DNA of 64,000 bases. Source: an uncultured Acidobacteriota bacterium (lineage in GTDB: Bacteria; Acidobacteriota; Vicinamibacteria; Vicinamibacterales; JAFNAJ01). The notes beneath the pieces were generated by a model. That model was given only the letters and a program-made list of their open reading frames with translations. It was not told the DNA's origin and made no database searches. The stretch is taken from NCBI GenBank assembly GCA_963697285.1, contig CAVONI010000012.1, forward strand, positions 383,548 to 447,547. Direction: 5' to 3'. This document shows positions 11,803-42,954 of this stretch, in pieces; positions within the stretch are counted from its first letter, which is position 1; every line of letters starts with the position of its first letter. The position numbers and the translations under genes were made by a program.

Positions 11803-12426
11803 CTACTGCTTCGGCGCTGCTGCGCCGGCAGACACCATCTGGTCGAACCGCTTGATCACGTCGCTGGTGACGTCGAGACCCGGGTAGGCCCACACGACGC
11901 CGGCGTCAGCCACGCTGAACACCATCTGGAGGTTCTTCTCCTTGGCAACCGCATCGATGACCGGCATCAGCTTGCGCTGGAATTCGGCCTGCAGCTCCTG
12001 CTGGAGTTCCTGCACCTCGGCCTGCGCGTCCTGCGTGTAGCGCTGGATGTCGACGGTCAGCTTCTCGATGTCCTTCTCGAGCGTGCCCCGTGCTGTGTCG
12101 TTCAGCATCGTGCCGCCCTTCTGCAGCTTCTCCTGGTTGTCGGTGAGCTGCTTCTGCTTGGCCGCAAGTTCCGCGACCTTCTTGTCATTGAGCGCCTTGA
12201 CCTTGGTCGTCGCCGAACGGCCTTCGACCGATTCGTTGGCAATGCGCTGAATGTTCAGGTACGCGAACTTCGCGCCCTCGGGGAACGCGAGCGCAGGCGG
12301 CGCCTGGGCCGCGGGCTGCGCGGCAGGCTGCGCGGCGGCCGGCGTGGCCGGTGCCGGCTGCTGGGCGTACGAGGGACCAGCCACCAGCAGGGCACTGAGG
12401 GCAACGGCGAGAACGAGCGACTTCAT
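11803..12426 (-). CDS. OmpH/Skp-family periplasmic chaperone
   Basis: Signal peptide MKSLVLAVALSALLVAGPSYAQ followed by a coiled-coil-like body rich in K, E and Q. It sits in the conserved position between bamA and fabZ/lpxA. Confidence 0.8.
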   Translation of the reverse strand: MKSLVLAVALSALLVAGPSYAQQPAPATPAAAQPAAQPAAQAPPALAFPEGAKFAYLNIQRIANESVEGRSATTKVKALNDKKVAELAAKQKQLTDNQEKLQKGGTMLNDTARGTLEKDIEKLTVDIQRYTQDAQAEVQELQQELQAEFQRKLMPVIDAVAKEKNLQMVFSVADAGVVWAYPGLDVTSDVIKRFDQMVSAGAAAPKQ

Positions 12427-12477
12427 CGGCAAACGTCCTTTCACTGGGGAATGAGCACTACGGGCACGTGGCGGGAC

Positions 12478-31778: not shown

Positions 31779-34700
31779 ATGCAGTGGCTCGCCAGCCTCT
31801 CCGTCAAGCGTCCCGTGTTCGCGTCGGTGCTCATCCTGACGCTCACGGTCATCGGCGGTTTCTCGTTTTTTCAACTCGGCGTCGACCGGTTCCCCAAGGT
31901 CGACTTCCCCACCATCCTCGTCACCACGCGCCAGGCCGGTGCGTCACCGGAACAGATCGAGACCGAGATCACCGACAAGATCGAAGAGGCGGTGAACACG
32001 GTCAGCGGCATCGACGAGCTGCGCTCGGTGTCGTCCGAGGGCGTATCGACGGTCATCGTCTCGTTCGTCCTCGAGAAGAACGTCGATATTGCCGCGCAGG
32101 AAGTGCGCGACCGCATCAACCGCGTGTTGCCCCTGTTGCCGACCACCGTCGATCAGCCGACCATCGAGAAACTCGATCCCGACGCGGCCCCGGTGCTCAC
32201 GCTCGCCGTGACCTCGGCCAAGCCGATACGCGACGTGACGGAGTTCGCCGACAAGACGCTCCGCCGACAGCTCGAGAGCCTGAACGGCGTTGGCCAGGTG
32301 CTCGTCGTGGGCGGGCGCGGCCGTCAGATCAACCTGTGGCTGGATGCCGCCCGGTTGCAGGCCTACAACCTCACCGTGAGCGAGGTGGCGCGTGCGCTCA
32401 ACGCGCAGAACGCCGAAGTCCCTGGCGGTCGCGTCGAGCAGGGCCCCGAGACTCTCACGCTGCGCACGCTGGGACGCGTGACATCGGTCGAGGACTTCGG
32501 ACGAATCGTCGTCCGCCAGAGCGGCGACCACCCCATCATGGTGAGCGACGTCGCCCGGGTGGACGACGGCATGGCCGAAGCGGCGTCGCTGGCGAACGTG
32601 AACGGCGAGGGCACCGTCATCCTGCAGTTGCGGAAGCAGTCGGGCACCAACACCGTCGAAGTGGTGAACCGGGTCAAGGAACGGCTCGAGGAGCTTCGCG
32701 CGACCCTGCCGCCCGGCTACGCCGTGCGCGTCGTGCGCGATCAATCGGAGTTCATCGAAGCGTCGATCAAGACGGTCGAGGAACACCTCGTGATCGGGTC
32801 GGTGCTGGCAGCACTCGTCGTCCTGCTCTTCCTGGGCAGCCTGCGCTCGACGGTGATCGCGGCGGTGGCCATCCCGACGTCGATCATCGCGGCGTTCGGC
32901 CTCATCAACTTCATGGGGTTCACGCTGAACTCGATGACCATGCTGGCGCTGACCCTGGCGGTGGGCATCGTGATCGACGACGCGATCGTCGTGCTCGAGA
33001 ACATCTGGCGGTACATCGACGAGAAGGGATATCCCCCGTTCCAGGCCGCCATCGAGGCGACGCGCGAAATCGGGCTGGCGGTCATGGCGACGACGCTGTC
33101 GCTGATGGCGATCTTCGTGCCGGTGGGCTTCATGGGCGGCATCGTTGGCCGCTTCATGAAGTCGTTCGGCCTGACGATGGCGTTTGCGATCGCGGTGTCG
33201 CTGCTCGTGGCCTTCACGCTGACACCGATGATGTCGGCGAGGCTGCTTCGCCGCACCCCCCGCAAGGACGAAGACGACACACGTCCGACGGGCCGCGCCC
33301 CCGGCGAGCACGGCAAGAGCGGCTTCTTCGCACCCATTGATGCCATGTATGCGCGCACGCTCGAGTGGGCGCTTGGGCACACGCGCACCGTCGCGGCAGG
33401 TGCGGTGCTGGTGCTGCTCTCGACGGGTCCCCTGTTCGTCCTGGCGAACAAGACATTCATTCCCGACGACGACCAGTCGGAGTTCGAGATCAACGTCCGC
33501 GCGCCCGAAGGCACGAGCCTCGACAAGACCGCGCTGCTGGTCACGCGGATCGCCTCGCGGGTCCGTGAGCGCTTTCCGGCCGAAGTCGCCTACACCCTGA
33601 CGACGGCCGCCGACGATCCCGCGCGCACGCCGAACGCGGCCACCATCTACGTCCGCCTGAAGTCACTCGACGAACGCACGCGCGATCAGTTCGCGGTGAT
33701 GTCGGCAGTCCGCACGTCGGTCTTGCCCGAGTTCACAGACTTGAAACTGCGCACCGCCGTCCGGCCGGTGGCGACCATCGGCGGCGGCGGCAACCAGAAC
33801 GCGGCGATTCAGTACCTGATCAAGGGCCCGGACCTGAACGTCCTGCAGGACGCCGGGCGCAAGGTGGCCGCGGCGGCCGCGGGGATCCCGGGGCTCGTGG
33901 ACATCGACACGTCGATGAACCTGGGCAAGCCGGAGGTTTCGGTGCGCCTCGATCGCATGAAGGCCGCCGACCTCGGCGTACCCCTGGCCGACGCGGCGAA
34001 CGCGTTGCGCCTGCTCGTCGGAGGCGATCAGGTCACGACCTACAACGAGGGTGGTGAGCAGTACCAGGTGCACCTGCGCGCAGACGCGCCCGACCGGACG
34101 ACCACGGCGGCGATTGCCGGGCTCACGGTGCCGTCGTCGCGGCTCGGTGCGGTCGCCCTCGAAAACGTGGCCCAGTTCGACGACGGCACGGCGCCCGCCG
34201 AGATCAACCGCCTCGGCCGCCAGCGCCAGGTGTCGATCTTCGCCAACCTGATGCCGGGCTCGTCGCAGACGACGCCGATGGCGGCGATCCAGGCGGAGTT
34301 CGCCAAGCTGGGACTCGACCCGTCCTACCAGGCCGGGTTCTCGGGCCGGTCGAAGGAACTCGGACGCGCCGCGCGCAACTTCGTCCTGGCGTTCGTGCTG
34401 TCGCTGATCTTCATGTACCTGATCCTGGCGGCGCAGTTCGAGTCGTGGCTCCACCCGGTGACGATCCTGCTCGCGCTGCCGCTCACGCTGCCGTTCGCGT
34501 TGCTGTCGATCATCGTCACGCAGCAATCGCTGAACATCTTCTCGGCCCTCGGCCTGCTCGTGCTGTTCGGCGTCGTGAAGAAGAACTCGATTCTGCAGAT
34601 AGACCACGCGATCCAGCTGCGGGCGCACGGGCTCGATCGGCACGAGGCCGTCGTCCGGGCGAGCCGCGACCGACTGCGTCCCATCCTCATGACCACGATG

Positions 34701-36524
34701 GCGTTCGTGGCGGGCATGATCCCGCTGGTGCTGTCGAGCGGCGTCGGATCGGGCACCAATCGCGCGATCGGCTTCGTCATCATCGGTGGACAGACGCTGG
34801 TGCTGTTGCTCACGCTGGTGGTGACACCGGTCGCGTACGTGCTCTTCGACGAATTGACCGAGTGGCGGCGCCGGGCATGGCAGCGGGTGCGGGCGACGCG
34901 CACGGGCAAGGTCGCCGTGGCGACCGCCACCGTGCTGCTGATCCTGCTCGGCGGCGCGTTCGCCGCCCGGGCGCTCGCGCAGGACGTGCCGGCCGCTGAA
35001 GTGCGCCTGACGCTCGACGAGGCCGTTCGCCTTGCCCTGCAGCACAATCCCGACGTGGTCGTGGCCCGTCTCGAACCCGAGGTCGGCGCTACGCGCGTCA
35101 AGCAGGCGCGTGGGGCGTTTGCACCGGTGCTTGCGGCCACGTTCGGTCGGTCGAGCGCGACCCAGCCGCCGAGCAACTTCCTGAGCGGGCCCAATGGCTC
35201 GACCAGCGACGACTGGTTCGGCTCGACCGGCGTCCGCGAGCGCCTTCCTTTTGGAGGCGGCACGTGGGGCGTCACGTGGGATGCGGGGCGCACGGAGAGC
35301 GACAGCATCATCTCGACGTTCAGCCCGGCGCTATCGTCGGGGTTGCAGGCCGCGTTCTCGCAGCCGCTGCTCCGCGACCTGAAGATCGACGCCGCGCGGC
35401 AGCAACTGCTGATCACGAAGCGGAACCGCGAACTCAGCGACGTGCGCTTTCGCGAGGTCGTCGCCCAGACGACGTCCGATGTGAAGCGTGCGTACTGGGA
35501 TCTCGTGGCGGCCAGAGCCAACGTCGAGGTGCAGCAGCAATCGCTGACGCTCGCCGCAGAGCTGGCCCGCATCAACAAGGCGCGTGTCGATGTCGGGCAG
35601 GCGCCACCGCTCGATCTCGTGTCGGCCGAGGCAGAGGTCGCACAACGGCGCGAGCAGGTCATCGTTGCGGTCTTCCTCGCGCGCGACGTCGAAGACCGGC
35701 TCCGCGCCTTGATCATGGATCCAGGCGATGCCAGCGCCTGGACCACCCGCCTGCTTCCCGTCGACAGGCCCGACGTGGGCGCCCCGCTTCCCGACGTCGA
35801 TCTCGCGGTGCAGGCGACACTCTCGGCACGCGCCGACATCGTTCGCGCGCAGACGGAAGCTGAGATCGCAGGCACGAACGTCGAGTTCCTGAAGAACCAG
35901 CGCCTGCCCGACCTGCGCCTCGAGGCGAGTTACCGGGCGGCGGGCCTGGGCGGCGACCGGTTGATCCGGGAGGGTGGCTTCCCGGGAACGGTCGTGGGCT
36001 CGGTGCCCGGCTCCTTCAGCGACGTCCTCGCGCAAGTGCGCAGCCGCGACTACCCGACGTGGACGCTTGGCGTGACCCTGAGCTACCCCCTGGGCGGCGG
36101 CTACGAGGATGCGACGTATGCCCGCGCGAAACTCGAGCAGCGGCAGGCCACGGCCCGTGTCGATGCGGTGCAGATCAGGGCCGAGCGAGAGGTACGGCAA
36201 GCCGCGCGGCAGATCGAATCGGCTCGACAGCGCGTCGAGACCTCGCACGCGGCCAGCGGGTTGGCCGAACAGCGCCTCGACGCCGAACAGAAGCGCTACG
36301 AGGTCGGAATGTCGACCAGCTTTCTCGTCGTCCAGGCACAGCGTGACCTCGCGCAGGCGAAGACAAACGAACTTCGGGCCATGCTCGATGCACAGAACGC
36401 CACGGTGAACTTCGAGGCGCTGCAACTCGCGCCGGCGTCAGGGCAGAACGGGTCGATCGTGGTGAGCGGGAACACCGTGCTGAACGTTCCGGTCGGCGTT
36501 CCGAGAGGAATGTCGCGTCCGTAG
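31779..36524 (+). CDS. RND efflux permease (AcrB-like) continuous in frame with a TolC-like outer membrane factor module
   Basis: 1581-codon ORF. The N-terminus MQWLASLSVKRPVFASVLIL and the 12-TM RND architecture extend to about codon 1035. TolC/OEP-type sequence then follows (LTLDEAVRLALQHNPDVVVARLE...). No stop codon lies between the two parts. Confidence 0.8.
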   Translation: MQWLASLSVKRPVFASVLILTLTVIGGFSFFQLGVDRFPKVDFPTILVTTRQAGASPEQIETEITDKIEEAVNTVSGIDELRSVSSEGVSTVIVSFVLEKNVDIAAQEVRDRINRVLPLLPTTVDQPTIEKLDPDAAPVLTLAVTSAKPIRDVTEFADKTLRRQLESLNGVGQVLVVGGRGRQINLWLDAARLQAYNLTVSEVARALNAQNAEVPGGRVEQGPETLTLRTLGRVTSVEDFGRIVVRQSGDHPIMVSDVARVDDGMAEAASLANVNGEGTVILQLRKQSGTNTVEVVNRVKERLEELRATLPPGYAVRVVRDQSEFIEASIKTVEEHLVIGSVLAALVVLLFLGSLRSTVIAAVAIPTSIIAAFGLINFMGFTLNSMTMLALTLAVGIVIDDAIVVLENIWRYIDEKGYPPFQAAIEATREIGLAVMATTLSLMAIFVPVGFMGGIVGRFMKSFGLTMAFAIAVSLLVAFTLTPMMSARLLRRTPRKDEDDTRPTGRAPGEHGKSGFFAPIDAMYARTLEWALGHTRTVAAGAVLVLLSTGPLFVLANKTFIPDDDQSEFEINVRAPEGTSLDKTALLVTRIASRVRERFPAEVAYTLTTAADDPARTPNAATIYVRLKSLDERTRDQFAVMSAVRTSVLPEFTDLKLRTAVRPVATIGGGGNQNAAIQYLIKGPDLNVLQDAGRKVAAAAAGIPGLVDIDTSMNLGKPEVSVRLDRMKAADLGVPLADAANALRLLVGGDQVTTYNEGGEQYQVHLRADAPDRTTTAAIAGLTVPSSRLGAVALENVAQFDDGTAPAEINRLGRQRQVSIFANLMPGSSQTTPMAAIQAEFAKLGLDPSYQAGFSGRSKELGRAARNFVLAFVLSLIFMYLILAAQFESWLHPVTILLALPLTLPFALLSIIVTQQSLNIFSALGLLVLFGVVKKNSILQIDHAIQLRAHGLDRHEAVVRASRDRLRPILMTTMAFVAGMIPLVLSSGVGSGTNRAIGFVIIGGQTLVLLLTLVVTPVAYVLFDELTEWRRRAWQRVRATRTGKVAVATATVLLILLGGAFAARALAQDVPAAEVRLTLDEAVRLALQHNPDVVVARLEPEVGATRVKQARGAFAPVLAATFGRSSATQPPSNFLSGPNGSTSDDWFGSTGVRERLPFGGGTWGVTWDAGRTESDSIISTFSPALSSGLQAAFSQPLLRDLKIDAARQQLLITKRNRELSDVRFREVVAQTTSDVKRAYWDLVAARANVEVQQQSLTLAAELARINKARVDVGQAPPLDLVSAEAEVAQRREQVIVAVFLARDVEDRLRALIMDPGDASAWTTRLLPVDRPDVGAPLPDVDLAVQATLSARADIVRAQTEAEIAGTNVEFLKNQRLPDLRLEASYRAAGLGGDRLIREGGFPGTVVGSVPGSFSDVLAQVRSRDYPTWTLGVTLSYPLGGGYEDATYARAKLEQRQATARVDAVQIRAEREVRQAARQIESARQRVETSHAASGLAEQRLDAEQKRYEVGMSTSFLVVQAQRDLAQAKTNELRAMLDAQNATVNFEALQLAPASGQNGSIVVSGNTVLNVPVGVPRGMSRP
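34887..36524 (+). CDS. TolC-family outer membrane efflux protein module; possible independent translation from the internal GTG
   Basis: The in-frame GTG at 34887 opens VRATRTGKVAVATATVLLILLGGAFAARALA|QD, a signal-peptide-like sequence with an AxA motif. Two OEP repeats follow. No strong Shine-Dalgarno sequence is seen. Confidence 0.45.
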   Translation: MRATRTGKVAVATATVLLILLGGAFAARALAQDVPAAEVRLTLDEAVRLALQHNPDVVVARLEPEVGATRVKQARGAFAPVLAATFGRSSATQPPSNFLSGPNGSTSDDWFGSTGVRERLPFGGGTWGVTWDAGRTESDSIISTFSPALSSGLQAAFSQPLLRDLKIDAARQQLLITKRNRELSDVRFREVVAQTTSDVKRAYWDLVAARANVEVQQQSLTLAAELARINKARVDVGQAPPLDLVSAEAEVAQRREQVIVAVFLARDVEDRLRALIMDPGDASAWTTRLLPVDRPDVGAPLPDVDLAVQATLSARADIVRAQTEAEIAGTNVEFLKNQRLPDLRLEASYRAAGLGGDRLIREGGFPGTVVGSVPGSFSDVLAQVRSRDYPTWTLGVTLSYPLGGGYEDATYARAKLEQRQATARVDAVQIRAEREVRQAARQIESARQRVETSHAASGLAEQRLDAEQKRYEVGMSTSFLVVQAQRDLAQAKTNELRAMLDAQNATVNFEALQLAPASGQNGSIVVSGNTVLNVPVGVPRGMSRP

Positions 36525-36530
36525 GTCGCC

Positions 36531-36552
36531 CCGGCGCGCACGGCGCGCCCGG
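36531..36552. terminator. GC hairpin between convergent genes (possible bidirectional terminator)
   Basis: ggcgcgc-acg-gcgcgcc forms a 7-bp stem in the 48-nt gap between the stops at 36524 (+) and 36573 (-). There is no U-tract. Confidence 0.35.
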
Positions 36553-36572
36553 CGAAGGCCGGACGCCCGCGA

Positions 36573-37079
36573 TCAGAACTTGAGGTTGACGCCCGCGTAG
36601 AGCCGCTGGGGCTTCTGGGCGAGCGCATCGCCCTGCAGCACGAACACGCGATAGTCGATGCGCAGCTGGAGCGGCCCGGCGAGGGCGATCTTCACGCCGC
36701 CGCCGATGTTCGTCGCCAGGCTGGTCTGGCTCACGTCGAGCAGCGTCTCGCGATACACGCCCGCGCCGGCGATCCCGTAGAACGTCAGCCCGCTGATCGG
36801 GATGGGATTCTGCACGAACGCGTTCGCCATGAACGTCCGCAGTTGCGGCGCGACGTCTTCGGGCGACTCGTGCGTCGACGCGTACTCGCCCTCGAAGCCG
36901 AACGCGACGAACGTGACGCCCGCCGATGCGCCGACCACCGCTCGCGATTCCGGCGATCCGTTCACGCCGAGAAACGCGGTGACGTCCGCGCGGGCGGCGG
37001 CCGGAGCCGCAATCAAGATTGCCGCGGCGAGCAGACGCGCACGCCATCCCTGCGCCATCATGTCGAGCCCTTCAATCAT
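36573..37079 (-). CDS. Small outer-membrane beta-barrel protein (OmpA-like/OmpW-like 8-strand type)
   Basis: Signal peptide ...LLAAAILIAAPAAARA|DV, alternating-hydrophobicity strands and a C-terminal ...YAGVNLKF ending in Phe. ATG 37079 overlaps the upstream stop as ATGA. Confidence 0.65.
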   Translation of the reverse strand: MIEGLDMMAQGWRARLLAAAILIAAPAAARADVTAFLGVNGSPESRAVVGASAGVTFVAFGFEGEYASTHESPEDVAPQLRTFMANAFVQNPIPISGLTFYGIAGAGVYRETLLDVSQTSLATNIGGGVKIALAGPLQLRIDYRVFVLQGDALAQKPQRLYAGVNLKF

Positions 37080-37714
37080 TTCGGCGCCGCCGGGACCACC
37101 GTCGGCGGAGCAAGCGCGGGGAGCAGCGGCGTCAGCGTCAGCACGTGGCGAGGCCCGGCGTAGGCGGCCGCGAACCTGCGATGGAGGTCGGGGGCGTCGA
37201 CCGGGAAGGCCTTGTAGATCATCTCGAGGATGAACGTCCCGGAGTAATCGGCGTCGGCCACGACGGGATCGATGACGAACAGGTACAGGGCATTGACGCC
37301 ACCGGGGGCGCCTTCGGCGGCCTTGACGACCTTCCAGCCCGCCACCCACGACTTCTGCGTCGCGTCGCCGACGGCCGCAACCGCCTCGAAGAACTTCGCC
37401 ATCACCAACTCGAAGTCGGCCGCCGCCGCTGGCAGGATCGGGTGGAACACGATTCCGGCCGCGCCCGCAATCTTCAGCGTGGCAGGCGGGATGGGTTCTG
37501 TCGTCGGTGCGACGCCCGAAGGCGCGGTGCCGGGTGGCTGCTCTGAAGGTGCCGACTGCGAAGGCGGTGGTGGCTGCGGGGCCCCTGCCGCCTGGGGCGC
37601 CGCAGGGTTCGCCGTCGGGGTCGGCGGAGGAGGCTGCGCACCCGCCTCACCGGTCCCCGTCGCGATGGCGAGGGCCGCTGCGGCAGATCGGGCAACGCCA
37701 AGGAAGGTGCGCAT
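37076..37714 (-). CDS. Secreted hypothetical protein, paralog A (signal peptide, Pro-rich linker, about 130-aa conserved domain)
   Basis: Begins MRTFLGVARSAAAALAIATGTGEAGA|Q, followed by a PPPPTPT...PP linker. The domain shares G.G..FH, DF..MAK, V.P.V.DADYS and Y.AFP blocks with the upstream gene product. Confidence 0.55.
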   Translation of the reverse strand: MRTFLGVARSAAAALAIATGTGEAGAQPPPPTPTANPAAPQAAGAPQPPPPSQSAPSEQPPGTAPSGVAPTTEPIPPATLKIAGAAGIVFHPILPAAAADFELVMAKFFEAVAAVGDATQKSWVAGWKVVKAAEGAPGGVNALYLFVIDPVVADADYSGTFILEMIYKAFPVDAPDLHRRFAAAYAGPRHVLTLTPLLPALAPPTVVPAAPK

Positions 37715-37728
37715 GCGGAGATGTGCGT

Positions 37729-37766
37729 CGAGCCTCGCGTGATCGCCATCGACCACGCGAGGCTCG
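37729..37766 (-). other. Perfect 13-bp inverted repeat (12-nt loop) between the two paralog genes
   Basis: cgagcctcgcgtg (37729-37741) pairs with cacgcgaggctcg (37754-37766). A second hairpin, gcgagcc-a-ggctcgc (37776-37790), abuts the upstream stop codon. Confidence 0.7.
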
Positions 37767-37789
37767 CAGGGTGCTGCGAGCCAGGCTCG

Positions 37790-38284
37790 CTACTTCGAGA
37801 AGTCGGTGGCCAGCGTCAGGTTGACGCGGCTCGTGCCTCCGCCGAATGCCCCCGACACGCGCTTGTAGATCTCCTGCTGCTCTTCCGGGAAGGCCGCGTA
37901 GAGAAGCTTGAGCAGCGTCTGCATCGAGTAGTCGGCGTCCTTGACCGCGGGGTTCACCATCACGACGTACGTGACGTTGCCATTGGCGGGCGCGTCGGTC
38001 GACTTGTAGACCTGGATGCCCTTGGCCATCTCGACGTGCGTGGGTTCGGACGACTTCTGCATCGCGATCTTCAACTTCGCCATGATCCAGTCGAAGTCTT
38101 CGGTCCGGTCTGCCTTGATCTGGTGGAACATCACGCCCGCACCGGAGTTCAGGGTGAGCGCCGGTGGCGCCGCGGCAGCGGGTGCCTCCTGGGCAAGCGC
38201 ACTGGTGGCACACGTCAACACGAACATGGCCGCGACCGCCGCCGCAACCCGAGCACAGGCCCCGCCAAACGACTTCTCGAACAT
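37790..38284 (-). CDS. Secreted hypothetical protein, paralog B
   Basis: ATG 38284 follows a strong GGAGGTG Shine-Dalgarno sequence. Signal peptide ...MFVLTCATSALA|QE. The domain is homologous to paralog A. Confidence 0.6.
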   Translation of the reverse strand: MFEKSFGGACARVAAAVAAMFVLTCATSALAQEAPAAAAPPALTLNSGAGVMFHQIKADRTEDFDWIMAKLKIAMQKSSEPTHVEMAKGIQVYKSTDAPANGNVTYVVMVNPAVKDADYSMQTLLKLLYAAFPEEQQEIYKRVSGAFGGGTSRVNLTLATDFSK

Positions 38285-38431
38285 CCCCACCTCCAAGGCT
38301 AGTAACGGAATCGACACTGTAGCGTACTCGGGACTCAGACGAAAACGTTCATCACGTCATTGGCCAACAGCCGGCCACGATCGGTCAACGACCATCGGTC
38401 CGCCTCCAGCACGAGCCCCAGGCGGCGGCGC

Positions 38432-39286
38432 CTACGTGCCCGCGCGTCCGCCGCTCCACTTCAGTTGGCCGTCACCCTGGTCTGGCGCGCGCAGTTGCGC
38501 GCGGGCCGGGTTTGCGCGTCCAGGCAGGGTCCGGGTCCGCATCGGCTGCTGCTTGCGCTGCTGCCACATCATGCGGAGGTCGTCGACATCACCGTTCGGC
38601 GGCAGCTCGCGGTAGTCGGCACCGTCGAGATGCACGAACTCGCACATCTCGTGCAGTCGCGAGCGCATGCGGTAGCCGATGCGGCACAGCAGCGAGTCGG
38701 GATCGGAGATGTCGGGCTTGTCGTCGTAGTTCGACGTGAACATCGTCGTCTTCCGCTCGGAGTAGCGATGGTTGACGATGAGGTTCAGCGTCTCCTCCAC
38801 CCACTCCGATGACTTCTCGGCGCCGAGGTCGTCGAGCACGAGCAGGTCGCACCCGAGCACCGGCCGCAGCACGTCGCTTTCGGTGACGGGCACCGACGCG
38901 TCGTACGTCTGCCGCACGGCACGCAGGAGTTCGCGCGTGTCGTAGAACACCGCGTGCACGCGCTTGCGTTCGACGATGGCCTTGAGGGCGGCGACGGCGA
39001 TGTGGGTCTTCCCCACCCCGGGCGGGCCGAGCAGGAACAGTCCGCGGTCGACCGCCGGGAACTTGTCGACCAGCGTCCTGGCCGCGCTCACGGCGCGCAG
39101 GAGCGACTCGTTGCCGTAGGTGACGAAATCGTCGAGCGAACAGTGCTGGTAGCGGCGCGGCAGCCTGGCGTCGGTCAGCAGTCGCGTCGCCAGCGCGTCG
39201 CGCCAGCAGTCGCACCGCGTGACAAAGCGTGCGCCGTCACGTTCGACAGGCTTCCAACCAGAGTCGTCACACAGGGGACAGGGCAT
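38432..39286 (-). CDS. DnaC/DnaI-like AAA+ ATPase (putative helicase loader) with an N-terminal Cys4 zinc ribbon
   Basis: Begins MPCPLCDDSGW...RCDCW. Walker A is GPPGVGKTH and Walker B is LLVLDDLG, with TSNY after it. No transposase is adjacent. Confidence 0.7.
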   Translation of the reverse strand: MPCPLCDDSGWKPVERDGARFVTRCDCWRDALATRLLTDARLPRRYQHCSLDDFVTYGNESLLRAVSAARTLVDKFPAVDRGLFLLGPPGVGKTHIAVAALKAIVERKRVHAVFYDTRELLRAVRQTYDASVPVTESDVLRPVLGCDLLVLDDLGAEKSSEWVEETLNLIVNHRYSERKTTMFTSNYDDKPDISDPDSLLCRIGYRMRSRLHEMCEFVHLDGADYRELPPNGDVDDLRMMWQQRKQQPMRTRTLPGRANPARAQLRAPDQGDGQLKWSGGRAGT

Positions 39287-39334
39287 CGCGGTTTCCCGAA
39301 CTGCACGGGCCGTCGATGATAGCGCGCGGGTGTG

Positions 39335-39359
39335 AAAAAAGCGACCAGCCGCGCCGGTC
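39335..39359 (-). terminator. Rho-independent terminator after hspR
   Basis: The minus strand reads GACCGGC-GCG-GCTGGTC, a 7-bp stem with one G-U pair, followed by GCTTTTTTCAC. The T6 run is striking in this GC-rich context. The stem overlaps the hspR stop codon. Confidence 0.6.
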
Positions 39360-39756
39360 ACTCCTCGCGCGCGGCGGATCGGGCCAGCGGGGCGGGCGAC
39401 GACTTGACCATGGCCGTGTTGAGGCGCTGCTCCCACTCGCCCAGCCCGCGCGCGAGCTCACCCTTCACATACTCCATGAACTCGTTGACCTCGTGCTGCA
39501 TCTGCTCCATCTTCGCCCGCATGTTGAGGATGATCTCGACGCCTGCCAGGTTCACGCCCAGGTCGCGCGTGAGCGACAGGATGGTCTCGAGCCGCTCACA
39601 GTCGGCGTCGGAGAACATCCGCGTGTTGCCCTCGGTGCGCGACGGCATGAGCAGCCCTTCGCGCTCGTAGAGCCGCAGGGTCTGGGGATGGATGTCGTAG
39701 CGCGACGCGACCGCACTGATCGTGTACAGCGCCTTGCCTGCGCGTGGTGCGGTCAT
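39358..39756 (-). CDS. hspR: Heat-shock repressor HspR (MerR family)
   Basis: 132 aa containing YTISAVASRYDIHPQTLRLYEREGLL.PSRTEGNTR.F. It lies downstream of dnaJ, as in actinobacterial-type dnaK operons. Confidence 0.85.
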   Translation of the reverse strand: MTAPRAGKALYTISAVASRYDIHPQTLRLYEREGLLMPSRTEGNTRMFSDADCERLETILSLTRDLGVNLAGVEIILNMRAKMEQMQHEVNEFMEYVKGELARGLGEWEQRLNTAMVKSSPAPLARSAAREE

Positions 39757-40856
39757 GATGTGCGTCCGTCCTCGGATATCGGTGGGTGGAAGTGCGCTCG
39801 GACGTCGTCTGTCTGCAGGCGCCCGAACTCCCGGAGCAGTTCCTTGGAACGCTCGTCGAGCACGCGTGGCAGCACGAGGCGCACGTCGACCAGGAGATCG
39901 CCTGCCGGGCCGTGGCGCTGGGGGGCGCCTCGCTCGCGCAGCCTGAAGCGCTGTCCCGACTGCGTGCCCGGCGGCACGCGGACACTCACGGGCCCCGTCG
40001 GCGACGGCACCTGGATCCGCGTCCCGAGCGCGGCTTCGTGGAGGGCGAGCGGCACGTCGATGATCACGTCGTCACCCTCACGCCTGAAGAACGGGTGCGG
40101 CGCCACGCTCACGGCGAGGCGCAGGTCACCGGGCGGGCCGCCGCGGCGGCCTGCGTGCCCCTGCCCCGGGACGGTGAGTTCCGCGCCGTCGTGCACACCC
40201 GGCGGGATCTCGATCGGAATGACGTCGGCGCGGACACCCACGCCCTCGCCACCGCACGCCTGGCAGGTGTGCACGCGCACGACGCCGCCTCCGTTGCAGG
40301 CGGCGCACGTGCGCGCGAAGATCATGTGGCCACGCGTCCCGCGGACGTGTCCGGCCCCGCCGCACGCGTGGCAGCGCAGTTCCGCCCCTTCGACGATGCC
40401 GTGGCCCCCGCAGGGCCCACACGGCTCGAGCCGTGTCAGGCGCATGTCCACCGTGACGCCGCGTATCGCATCCTCGAAGGTCAACGAGAGCCGGTCGTGC
40501 AGGTCGGCGCCTCGCTCCGGCTCCTGCCGGCGGACTCGCGCGTGAATCACCTCGCCGAACAGGTCGCCAAACGTCGACGCCCGGGCGCCGTCCGCGCGCT
40601 GCGTGAAGTCGAACCCCTCGAAGGCCACCGATGCGTCGACGCGCACGTCGGCGAACTTGCCACTGTCGTACAACCGGCGTCGATCGGGCTGGCTCAGCGT
40701 CTCGAATGCCTGGACGACATCACGGTAGACGCGCGCTGCCTCGGCGTCGCCAGGATTGACGTCGGGATGGAAGCGTCGCGCCAACCGCTTGTACGCACGC
40801 TTGATCTCGTCGCCTGACGCCTCGCGGGGCACGCCGAGAATCATGTAGAGGTTCAT
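39753..40856 (-). CDS. dnaJ: Molecular chaperone DnaJ (type I, with zinc-finger domain)
   Basis: From ATG 40856. The J domain reads YMILGVPREASGDEIKRAYKRLARRFHPD. Four CxxCxGxG repeats are present (CGPCGGHG, CHACGGAG, CAACNGGG, CQACGGEG). Confidence 0.85.
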   Translation of the reverse strand: MNLYMILGVPREASGDEIKRAYKRLARRFHPDVNPGDAEAARVYRDVVQAFETLSQPDRRRLYDSGKFADVRVDASVAFEGFDFTQRADGARASTFGDLFGEVIHARVRRQEPERGADLHDRLSLTFEDAIRGVTVDMRLTRLEPCGPCGGHGIVEGAELRCHACGGAGHVRGTRGHMIFARTCAACNGGGVVRVHTCQACGGEGVGVRADVIPIEIPPGVHDGAELTVPGQGHAGRRGGPPGDLRLAVSVAPHPFFRREGDDVIIDVPLALHEAALGTRIQVPSPTGPVSVRVPPGTQSGQRFRLRERGAPQRHGPAGDLLVDVRLVLPRVLDERSKELLREFGRLQTDDVRAHFHPPISEDGRTS

Positions 40857-40894
40857 CGTGCACACCACCTCGCACTCGTGGGTGCGGTGCACGG

Positions 40895-40923
40895 CCCGCC
40901 GGCGCCCTGACGACGCCGGCGGG
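40895..40923 (-). other. Perfect 10-bp stem-loop in the dnaK-dnaJ intercistronic spacer
   Basis: The minus strand reads CCCGCCGGCG-TCGTCAGGG-CGCCGGCGGG, just after the dnaK stop. It could be a partial terminator or an mRNA stability element. Confidence 0.55.
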
Positions 40924-40930
40924 TCGCGTC

Positions 40931-42847
40931 CTACTTCTTGTCGTCGACGATCTCGGCGTCAATCACGTCGCCGTCGGCGGCCTGGCTCCTACCTGACGGA
41001 TCGCCGCCGGGCGTGCCGGCCCCGGGGCCGTCGTGCGGCGCCCCGCTCGTCTGCGCGGTCTTGTAGAGCACCTCGGCGACCTTGTGCTGCGCCTGCAGCA
41101 GCGCGGTCACGCCCGTCTGCATCGCCGCCGCATCGTTCGACTCGATCGCCTTCTTGAGTTCAGCGATCGCGGCCTCGACTGGCGCCTTGTCGCTCGCCGT
41201 GATCTTGTCGCCCGCATCGGCCAGCAGCTTCTCGGCCGCGTAGACGGCCTGGTCGGCACGGTTGCGCGCCTCCGCCTCCTCCTTGAGCTTGCGGTCGGCC
41301 TCGGCGTGCGCCTCGGCCTCCTTCATCATCCGGTCGACTTCGTCCTTGCTCAGGCCGCTGCTCGCCGTGATGGTGATCTTCTGCTCCTGGCCGGTGCCCC
41401 GATCCTTCGCCGACACGTGCACCATGCCGTTGGCGTCGATGTCGAACGTGACCTCGATCTGCGGCACGCCACGAGGCGCGGGCGGCAGGCCCACGAGGTG
41501 GAAACGCCCCAGCGTGCGGTTGTCGCGCGCCATCGGACGCTCGCCCTGCAGCACGTGCACCTCGACGCTCGTCTGGCTGTCGGCCGCCGTCGAGAACACC
41601 TCGCTCTTCTTCGACGGGATGGTCGTGTTGCGCGGTATCAGCGTGGTCATGACCCCGCCAAGCGTCTCGATGCCCAGCGACAGCGGCGTCACGTCGAGCA
41701 GCAACAGGTCCTTGACCTCGCCCGACAGGACACCGGCCTGCACCGCGGCGCCAATCGCCACCACCTCGTCGGGATTGACACCCTTGTGCGGTTCGCGCTG
41801 GAAGAACTCCTTGACCAGTTGCTGCACGCGCGGGATTCGCGTCGACCCTCCCACGAGGACGACTTCGTCGATCTCCTTCGCCGAGAGGCGGGCGTCGGCC
41901 AGCGCCTTGCGGCACGGCTCCATCGTCCGCTGCAACAGCTCGTCGACCAGGTTCTCGAACTTCGCGCGGCTCAGGCGCATCGACAGGTGCTTGGGCCCGC
42001 TCGCATCCGCCGTGATGAACGGCAGGCTGATGTCGGTCTCCATCACCGTCGACAGCTCCATCTTCGCCTTCTCGGCGGCTTCGCGCAGCCGCTGGAGCGC
42101 CATGCGGTCCTTCGACAGGTCGATGCCCTCGTCCTTGCGGAACTCCGCGATGATCCACTCGATGATCCGCTGGTCGAGGTTGTCGCCACCAAGGTGCGTG
42201 TCGCCGTTGGTCGACTTCACCTGCACGACATCGCCACCGACCTCGAGGATCGAGATGTCGAAGGTGCCGCCACCGAAGTCGTAGACGGCGATCACCTCGT
42301 CGGACTTCTTGTCGAGCCCGTACGCCAGCGCCGCCGCCGTCGGCTCGTTGACGATGCGCTTGACGTCGAGTCCAGCGATCTTGCCCGCTTCCTTGGTGGC
42401 CTGCCGCTGGGCGTCGTTGAAGTACGCGGGCACAGTGATCACCGCCTCGGTGACCGGCTCGCCCAGGTACGCCTCGGCCGCCTGCTTGAGCTTCTGCAGG
42501 ACCATCGCCGAAATCTGCGGGGGCGCCCACTTCTCGCCGTTGGCCTTGATGCGGACGTCTGACCCTTCGGGCTCCACGGCGTAGGGCACCATCTTCATCT
42601 CTTCGTTCACTTCGTCGAAGCGACGACCCATGAAGCGCTTGATCGAGAAGATGGTGTTCTCGGGATTCGTGACCGCCTGGCGCTTGGCAACCTGCCCGAC
42701 GAGTCGCTCCCCGGATTTCGCGAACCCGACAACGGACGGGGTCAGCCGGCTGCCCTCCTGGTTGGTGATGACGACGGGTTCTCCGCCTTCCATGACGGCG
42801 ACCACCGAGTTCGTGGTGCCGAGGTCAATCCCGATGATCTTGCCCAT
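40931..42847 (-). CDS. dnaK: Molecular chaperone DnaK (Hsp70)
   Basis: From ATG 42847 ([14 protein letters not shown]). Canonical Hsp70 motifs run throughout ([18 protein letters not shown]). Confidence 0.95.
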
Positions 42848-42924
42848 GGCTCGTGTCCCTCTTGAACCGCCCCTGGTGGGCGACGCCCCCGGCCGTCTCT
42901 GACCGAGCAATTGATAACATGAAG

Positions 42925-42953
42925 AGCATAAATATTGAGTGTCATGATGTCAA
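42925..42953 (-). promoter_or_regulatory. Sigma-70-type promoter of the dnaK operon
   Basis: On the minus strand, TTGACA (42948-42953) is followed by a 17-nt spacer and TATGCT (42925-42930). The site lies in an AT-rich island about 80-105 nt upstream of the dnaK ATG. Confidence 0.6.
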
Positions 42954-42954
42954 G
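42934..42954 (-). promoter_or_regulatory. HAIR-like HspR operator overlapping the dnaK promoter
   Basis: The minus strand reads CTTGACA-N7-ACTCAAT, against the HAIR consensus CTTGAGT-N7-ACTCAAG (11 of 14 positions). It overlaps the -35 element and spacer. hspR is encoded in the same operon. Confidence 0.6.

Follow-up and report, generated by a model that had tools for sequence, protein, structure and literature searches.

A large unnamed family of predicted exported proteins, modelled on a dimeric α+β-barrel fold, at the edge of the dnaK gene block of soil Acidobacteria

What two related exported proteins and a small outer-membrane barrel do side by side in an acidobacterial genome, and whether their genes form one unit, are questions raised by three consecutive minus-strand open reading frames (ORFs) in a 64-kb stretch of DNA from an uncultured Acidobacteriota bacterium, hereafter the window, whose G+C content is ~69%. 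Gene B (37790..38284, minus strand) encodes 164 residues, gene A (37076..37714, minus strand) encodes a predicted exported paralog of B of 212 residues, and gene C (36573..37079, minus strand) encodes 168 residues, ~137 of them mature, of a predicted small OMP_b-brl-type barrel that ends in ..NLKF. By inspection, the N-termini of the three products display a basic n-region, a hydrophobic core, which is short in A, and an AxA-type site, with predicted cleavage between SALA and QE in B, EAGA and QP in A, and AARA and DV in C. A preliminary description of this locus had read these genes as a three-gene operon, possibly a cell-envelope module whose two paralogs are delivered through the barrel or anchored by it. 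The ORFs were found where they had been reported, and their signal peptides are plausible, all the more as the same layout is common to 68 aligned members of the family described below; the operon and the delivery through the barrel fared differently.

The first two products are indeed paralogous, with 34% identity over 112 residues (BLASTP, E 9e-21). The domain that they share is real, and its length is ~120 residues, not the ~130 first proposed: in B it covers residues 45-164 (37793..38152, minus strand), after a predicted signal peptide (residues ~1-31) and a short A/P linker. In A, the domain lies at ~37145..37486 (minus strand) and is followed by a short Pro-rich tail, and the Pro-rich linker that had been noticed in this protein corresponds to a P/A/Q-rich stretch of ~50 residues placed after the signal peptide (residues 27-76; 37487..37636, minus strand). 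A Shine-Dalgarno sequence, GGAGG, precedes the ATG of B by 6 nt. In a word-indexed search, an identical protein and 43 homologs of B were found in public data, together with 11 close homologs of A, which itself scored 134.5 bits against the hidden Markov model (HMM) of the family.

Two further candidates were rejected. B was considered as a lipoprotein (..VLTC..), but conservation of the Cys is lacking and the surrounding box departs from the usual form. The only further HMM match in the window, in the ORF at 11806..12477 (minus strand), was considered as a third paralog, but it is confined to the region of the profile that represents the signal peptide and low-complexity sequence. This ORF carries a family-like signal peptide and a Q/P/A-rich linker, and its body resembles Skp/OmpH (..ELQAEFQRKLMPVIDAVAKEKNLQMVF..).

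The preliminary description had not recognised the shared domain as any named family, and this was upheld by the profile searches. In Pfam, B and A had no match at E <= 1, and no meaningful match to Pfam, NCBIfam, PADLOC or PDB sequences was obtained, whether the query was a single sequence or a profile of 52 members. By contrast with this absence from the databases, an exhaustive profile search recovered 1,116 representatives of 50%-identity clusters at E <= 1e-3, of which 706 were retained at E <= 1e-10; given a family of this size and the 43 close homologs of B, the genes are considered to be real. All of the 68 diverse members that were aligned (68/68) share one layout, comprising a signal-peptide-like N-terminus, a Q/P/A-rich linker and the ~120-residue domain, with the consensus ..IKPDKTADFE..KLKEAL..QQAAGWKVFK..LYVFVIDPxVKGADY..EAFP.. 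and the conserved motifs DFE, GWKVFK and DPxVxxADY. In B numbering, Y119 is invariant, and F64, E65, Y106, P112, D118 and P133 are nearly so. Many members carry two copies of the domain in one chain.

The source annotations of these proteins read "hypothetical" or, presumably because of the Ala/Pro-rich linker, wrongly assign them to pyruvate dehydrogenase as its E2 component. The named close homologs belong to metagenome-assembled genomes of Acidobacteria or Vicinamibacteraceae, and three close loci were detected in a scan of GTDB genomes. A literature search returned no description of the domain family. The domain defines a family that is large and unnamed, predicted to be exported and modelled on a known fold, and that is distributed mainly in soil Acidobacteria. 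It is typical of Vicinamibacteria-type lineages, which are abundant in soil and hardly studied by experiment, and since more than 1,000 clusters are wrongly annotated or not annotated at all, naming the family and its fold would correct many database entries.

The fold was approached through predicted models. The AlphaFold model of B had a predicted local distance difference test score (pLDDT) above 90 for residues 45-164, and the elements of the domain follow the order β1-α1-α1'-β2-β3-α2-β4, which is a ferredoxin-like arrangement. Foldseek comparison of the single domain with the PDB gave weak matches (E 4e-3 to 5e-2), mainly to dimeric ferredoxin-like and ABM proteins, including 3fmb, 2omo, LsrG, SnoaB and IsdI. 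A family member in which two copies of the domain are fused in tandem (P0056) was far more informative. Its AlphaFold model reached a predicted template-modelling score (pTM) of 0.80 despite a disordered linker of 18 residues, from which it follows that its two domains are packed together in the model. The best Foldseek matches of P0056 were FN1347 (3mcs), 2pgc, PenE, sulfur oxygenase reductase, CT0912 and Cld/HemQ, with E values of 1e-7 to 1e-4, and tandem ferredoxin-like barrels were matched with a probability of 1.0, far better than with the single domain. Because the tandem model matches such barrels better, the assignment of the domain to the dimeric α+β-barrel superfamily is regarded as reasonably firm for predicted models, whose template-modelling (TM) scores against the matched structures reach just 0.4-0.6.

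The family resembles the members of this superfamily, such as ABM (PF03992), Dabb (PF07876), 3mcs, 2pgc, LsrG (2gff), SnoaB (3kg1) and IsdG/IsdI, in the β-α-β-β-α-β order, and the ABM-like tandem structures in the pairing of domains seen in the P0056 model (Foldseek E ~1e-7, probability 1.0). It differs from ABM and Dabb in several respects. None of 52 family members has a Pfam match and there is no PDB sequence match; an extra short helix follows α1, and the conserved motifs are the family's own. The domain is, moreover, read as extracytoplasmic (behind a signal-peptide-like N-terminus in 68 aligned members, and after a membrane helix in fusions to TIR), and is found fused to caspase, TIR and trypsin-like domains. 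Cld, HemQ (coproheme decarboxylase) and DyP share tandem ferredoxin-like repeats with P0056 (Foldseek E 3e-5 to 1e-3), but their domains are larger, with a root-mean-square deviation of 8-12 Å, and the family has neither an HMM match to them nor a conserved haem-ligating His. Some DyP members are exported. From the dimeric α+β-barrel fold it may be inferred that the functional unit consists of two packed domains, which would be provided by a homodimer in lineages with one gene, by a B+A heterodimer in two-gene lineages such as that of the window, and by an intramolecular pseudo-dimer of the two copies in fused relatives.

Such a fold would suit a first alternative, in which B and A are periplasmic small-molecule binders or cofactor-free enzymes, as are most characterised dimeric α+β-barrel proteins, with the ABM monooxygenases, the IsdG-type haem degraders, LsrG and HemQ/Cld as the named parallels. 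The best structural matches, which are of ABM and Cld/HemQ type, speak for it. However, the HMMs of ABM (PF03992), Dabb (PF07876), Cld and DyP match none of the 52 members scanned, and the fusions of the domain to caspase, trypsin-like and TIR partners are not readily explained by an enzymatic role. On balance this alternative is held to be unlikely; its more specific version, which involves haem, is taken up below with the gene upstream of B.

These fusions provide hints at function. Four cases combine a signal peptide, a Peptidase_C14 caspase and two copies of the domain, and the same order followed by TonB_C also occurs; in two cases, TIR_2 is joined through one transmembrane helix to two copies of the domain; and a signal peptide, the domain and Trypsin_2 occur in one chain among the multi-domain relatives. 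To judge from their architecture, the domain is extracytoplasmic in all multi-domain relatives. Nothing informative emerged from the genes around the trypsin fusion. In one locus (L018, 1..6956), four paralogous caspase-like peptidases with signal peptides are encoded in a row, and their C-terminal modules are, respectively, PDZ_2, an unknown β-rich module, two copies of OmpH/Skp, and two copies of the present domain with TonB_C. This array looks like an uncharacterised system of envelope proteolysis. PDZ and Skp are periplasmic polypeptide-binding domains, and Skp binds unfolded outer-membrane proteins. The likeness of the present domain to them would be one of role, not of homology: it occupies the same C-terminal slot among the caspase paralogs, and in another fusion its partner is a trypsin-like protease without PDZ. 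The folds are unrelated, a binding role for the domain would be assigned by analogy, and, whereas the PDZ of HtrA is C-terminal, the domain is N-terminal in the trypsin-like fusion.

Because the domain holds the PDZ/Skp slot in this array and is fused to peptidases and TIR, B and A are tentatively proposed, with clearly less than an even chance of being right, to be a dimeric periplasmic binding module whose ligand would probably be a polypeptide or an envelope protein. The periplasmic domain pair would then most likely be a binding module, not a secretion substrate. A more specific form of this proposal makes the domain a new periplasmic module, on the dimeric α+β-barrel fold, for the binding of clients, these being envelope proteins that are unfolded or mislocalised; it is distinctly speculative and held to be unlikely. 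If it were true, free B or the B+A dimer would serve as a holdase alongside the DnaK system of the cytoplasm, the caspase, trypsin-like and TIR fusions would hand over substrates or signal damage to the envelope, and the domain would be functionally interchangeable with PDZ and Skp. In either form, the fusion context yields a definite hypothesis on binding, open to tests on purified protein, and the repeated fusions to periplasmic caspase-like peptidases, beside paralogs with PDZ and Skp, point to an unexplored system of envelope proteolysis or quality control in these bacteria.

The same architectures could be read otherwise, with the domain as an extracytoplasmic sensor of conflict or cell-death systems. 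In the fusions it would pass on to TIR or caspase a signal from the envelope, for example one caused by phage or damage, and stand-alone B and A would be soluble proteins that regulate such systems or act as decoys in them. Effector domains are typically of the caspase, TIR or trypsin-like kind, within the fusions the portions that are TIR and caspase match defence models (ThsB-like TIR, caspase), and the order of TIR_2, transmembrane helix and two domain copies is receptor-like. The caspase fusions carry signal peptides, however, and their peptidases would therefore be periplasmic and not cytoplasmic suicide effectors. Furthermore, the domain itself matches no PADLOC model, and the stand-alone genes are found in a housekeeping block (dnaK to hemW) and not in a defence island, being nearly universal and syntenic in the clade, while defence genes are typically patchy. 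A sensor role is thus considered improbable.

The housekeeping block was delineated in ten long-contig relatives and in 80 metagenome loci obtained from a contig scan. In the ten relatives, the conserved order is dnaK, dnaJ, an hspR-like MerR gene, a gene for a DnaC/IstB-like ATPase, hemW, the domain gene (sometimes with a second copy) and the barrel gene. In the window, the upstream part of this block, which all relatives share, occupies 38435..42910 (minus strand; ORFs and Pfam matches), with dnaK (to 40931), dnaJ (39753..40892), the hspR-like MerR gene (39358..39756) and the DnaC/IstB-like AAA+ ATPase gene (38435..39286), all on the minus strand. The metagenome loci gave a similar picture: among those with at least 400 nt of upstream sequence, hemW was directly upstream on the same strand in 58 of 64, and among those with at least 650 nt downstream, the barrel gene was directly downstream in 46 of 51. 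Five loci (L046, L049, L075, L088 and L099; on contigs of lower GC, 0.61-0.64) had another context, without hemW or barrel, and in two of them (L046 and L075) the domain gene adjoins genes for a LuxR-type response regulator and a histidine kinase. Two domain genes were present in just 6 of the 80 metagenome loci, and the paralog pair is hence not the fixed feature that it appeared to be from the window. In a neighbour-joining tree, the B type (FHQIKADRT..) forms a derived clade, and the single-copy loci carry the consensus, A-like type. B would stand as a self-contained gene at the end of the dnaK-dnaJ-hspR-dnaC-like-hemW block.

The third product is most likely a small outer-membrane barrel, as the preliminary description had suspected of this protein ending in ..NLKF. 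C aligned with the whole PF13505 OMP_b-brl model (3-175 of 175; E 4.3e-6), at 27.5 bits against a cut-off of 28.7 bits, and all nine orthologs that were compared also matched (9/9, best E 4.9e-8). Its termini, ..AAPAAARA before DV (signal peptide by inspection) and ..YAGVNLKF, are those expected of small barrels of the OmpX/OmpA-N type, to which it is alike in the signal peptide, the full-length alignment and the terminal Phe, F168 being invariant among orthologs; it is unlike them in its score just under the cut-off and in having no PDB sequence match, either as a single sequence or as a profile. The charged residues predicted to line the barrel interior are invariant in the orthologs, which suits a closed barrel of OmpX/OmpA type better than a pore.

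Adjacency of the domain and barrel genes, which the preliminary description had reported from the window, proved to be general, since it holds in 46/51 metagenome loci and in every one of the ten long-contig relatives, whose barrel orthologs share 44-80% identity. The strand pattern is different. The barrel is co-directional with the domain gene only in the window and in its relatives L001-L003; it lies on the opposite strand in L004, L006, L008 and L013-L017 (six distinct long-contig relatives), is monocistronic in L013-L017, and is convergent to the domain gene in 46 of the 46 metagenome loci that have it. As the barrel is convergent in all these loci, the reading of the three genes as an operon is unsupported, and the junction of A with C is a recent local inversion of a usually convergent gene and not an old operon. 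Conservation of the three-gene arrangement had been set beforehand as a test, and what was found is a conserved neighbourhood and no conserved operon. The stop codon of A and the ATG of C do overlap as ATGA, which is the basis on which translational coupling had been proposed. Nevertheless, an alternative in-frame ATG at 37061 (MMAQGW..), 18 nt downstream and preceded by GAAGGG, is an equally good start of C, and in the closest relative the overlap is replaced by a 14-nt gap, so that coupling is not certain. This case invites caution on operon calls in general, given that a tight junction can mimic an old operon and yet stem from a recent inversion. The barrel gene would rather be an old neighbour, usually convergent and monocistronic, that was inverted and joined to A in the lineage of the window alone.

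An export or anchoring function of the barrel for B and A could draw on this adjacency, and on the tight junction of A and C in the window. But outside the clade of the window the barrel is convergent, and in L013-L017 monocistronic, the five family members in other contexts have no barrel, and none accompanies the fused relatives in the loci where they are encoded. Moreover, a barrel of ~137 mature residues with an invariant charged lining, being more probably closed than a pore, would be too small for the passage of a folded 13-kDa protein. The envelope module is therefore rated as very improbable; delivery through the barrel is unsupported, and nothing points to anchoring. A simpler account would be that no functional tie exists among B, A and the barrel, which would be neighbours through the inherited gene order of Vicinamibacteria. 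Every locus recovered comes from a single lineage, with Acidobacteria or Vicinamibacteraceae as the named sources, the orientation is convergent, and the whole block from dnaK to the barrel is conserved as a unit. On the other hand, the genes beyond the barrel vary by locus (RND-OEP, amidohydrolase, fatty-acid desaturase and acyl-CoA dehydrogenase), so that the pair of domain and barrel genes is the stable edge of the block, and its persistence while the far side changes speaks against mere inheritance. The inversion that gave the tight A-C junction in the clade of the window also suggests that co-expression is at least tolerated. The absence of a functional tie is regarded as rather less likely than not.

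Regulatory signals around B were consistent with a gene of its own. A motif of 12 nt, GTACGCTACAGT in the window (38316..38327, minus strand) and GTACGnTAnAGT in its family form, is located 31 nt 5' of the start of B. None of 62 metagenome loci lacked it, and 10 of its 12 positions never varied, even though the identity of the encoded proteins to the query profile was just 62-92%; it was also found in all long-contig relatives, and it precedes every domain gene that follows hemW. The window holds one copy, against 0.23 expected by chance. The motif is followed by a CU-rich leader with one to three copies of a CCCTTTCG element and then by the ribosome-binding site. It is -10-like and probably represents the promoter or an operator of B, and no clear -35 element was identified for it. 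At the other end of the gene, a hairpin in the B-A spacer (37725..37793, minus strand) starts at the last sense codon and stop of B. It is branched and GC-rich, has no U tract, and folds with -48 kcal/mol (z -5.1), a value that none of 200 shuffled sequences equalled. Comparable hairpins are located after the first domain gene of L004, L013 and L016, the last with a U tract, whereas L001 has none. The B-A hairpin looks like a terminator or attenuator. A scan for consensus promoters and terminators found none, and in Rfam no family scored above threshold in 36400-38600, the hairpin giving only a sub-threshold match (gyrA RNA, 24.9 bits against 45). Given the motif conserved in 62/62 loci and the stable hairpin after the stop, B is probably a transcription unit separate from A and C, even in the window, which goes against the co-transcription of B with A that the operon had implied.

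The history of hemW in the window agrees with this. Between B and the intact DnaC-like gene 5' of it, all of hemW but the last 20 codons (38338..38397, minus strand; ending in LTDRGRLLANDVMNVFV and the stop codon) is missing through deletion, as tblastn with the HemW of L001 aligned residues 357-376 of 376 only, and an alignment of the upstream region agreed. That the motif and B remained intact while hemW was deleted argues that B is independent of hemW in cis. This is where the haem version of the small-molecule alternative, in which the domain would handle haem or another tetrapyrrole downstream of the haem chaperone HemW, can be judged. The frequent position of hemW directly upstream (58/64 loci) is in its favour, and so are Y119, which is invariant, and Y106, which is nearly so, Tyr being a common haem ligand in extracytoplasmic haem carriers. 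However, the window has lost hemW and kept B with its upstream motif, and because B has its own promoter-like motif, adjacency to hemW need not mean co-expression. In addition, the only conserved His (H54) is confined to the B-type clade and is not family-wide.

The position of B at the end of the dnaK block also raised the possibility of heat-shock control. HspR/HAIR-controlled dnaK operons are known from Streptomyces, Helicobacter and Campylobacter, with an operator like CTTGAGT-N7-ACTCAAG. The window resembles them in the order dnaK, dnaJ and MerR-type gene and in a HAIR-like inverted repeat just 5' of dnaK (42934..42954, minus strand; CTTGACA-N7-ACTCAAT), which has 3 mismatches, a quality of match expected once per window by chance, and is credible because of its position. 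HAIR-like sites 5' of dnaK were also found in L001, L006, L012 and L013. The block of the window differs from these operons in running on into the DnaC-like ATPase gene and, in relatives, hemW, and in the separate upstream motif of B; no HAIR-like site was detected upstream of B, whose motif GTACGnTAnAGT differs from HAIR. An RNA thermometer 5' of B was also considered and found to be unsupported, as the leaders fold no better than shuffled sequences (z ~0).

Several of these observations weigh against a periplasmic, polypeptide-binding role for B and A. The link of B to the heat-shock genes is positional only, its motif being unlike HAIR, and temperature-sensitive masking of its ribosome-binding site was not seen: the predicted pairing of this site was 0.71, modestly above the 0.57 of a shuffled control, and hardly shifted from 30 to 45 °C. 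The argument from PDZ and Skp draws on one gene array and on analogy, through which the ligand too would be assigned. In this fold superfamily, the ligands of most solved members are small molecules or haem and not polypeptides. The synteny is conserved within one bacterial class and may reflect shared descent instead of function. Finally, the B+A heterodimer would be an extrapolation from the modelled pairing, which is that of the P0056 fusion.

Two minor observations concern the genes that flank this system. The DnaC/IstB-like ATPase, which carries an N-terminal Cys-rich segment (CPLC..CDC), is encoded with dnaK, dnaJ and hspR in the block of every relative, an unusual companion for chaperone genes. 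On the far side of the barrel gene, an ORF on the plus strand (31779..36524) encodes an RND-OEP protein of 1,581 residues in which a complete RND pump (ACR_tran, residues 5-1024) is fused to a TolC-like outer-membrane factor (OEP, to residue 1548). A literature search found no description of such a fusion. At the junction of the two parts, a hydrophobic segment ending in AxA (VATATVLLILLGGAFAARALA, followed by QD) resembles an internal signal peptide, and RND-OEP fusions of 1,576-1,605 residues are present in relatives.

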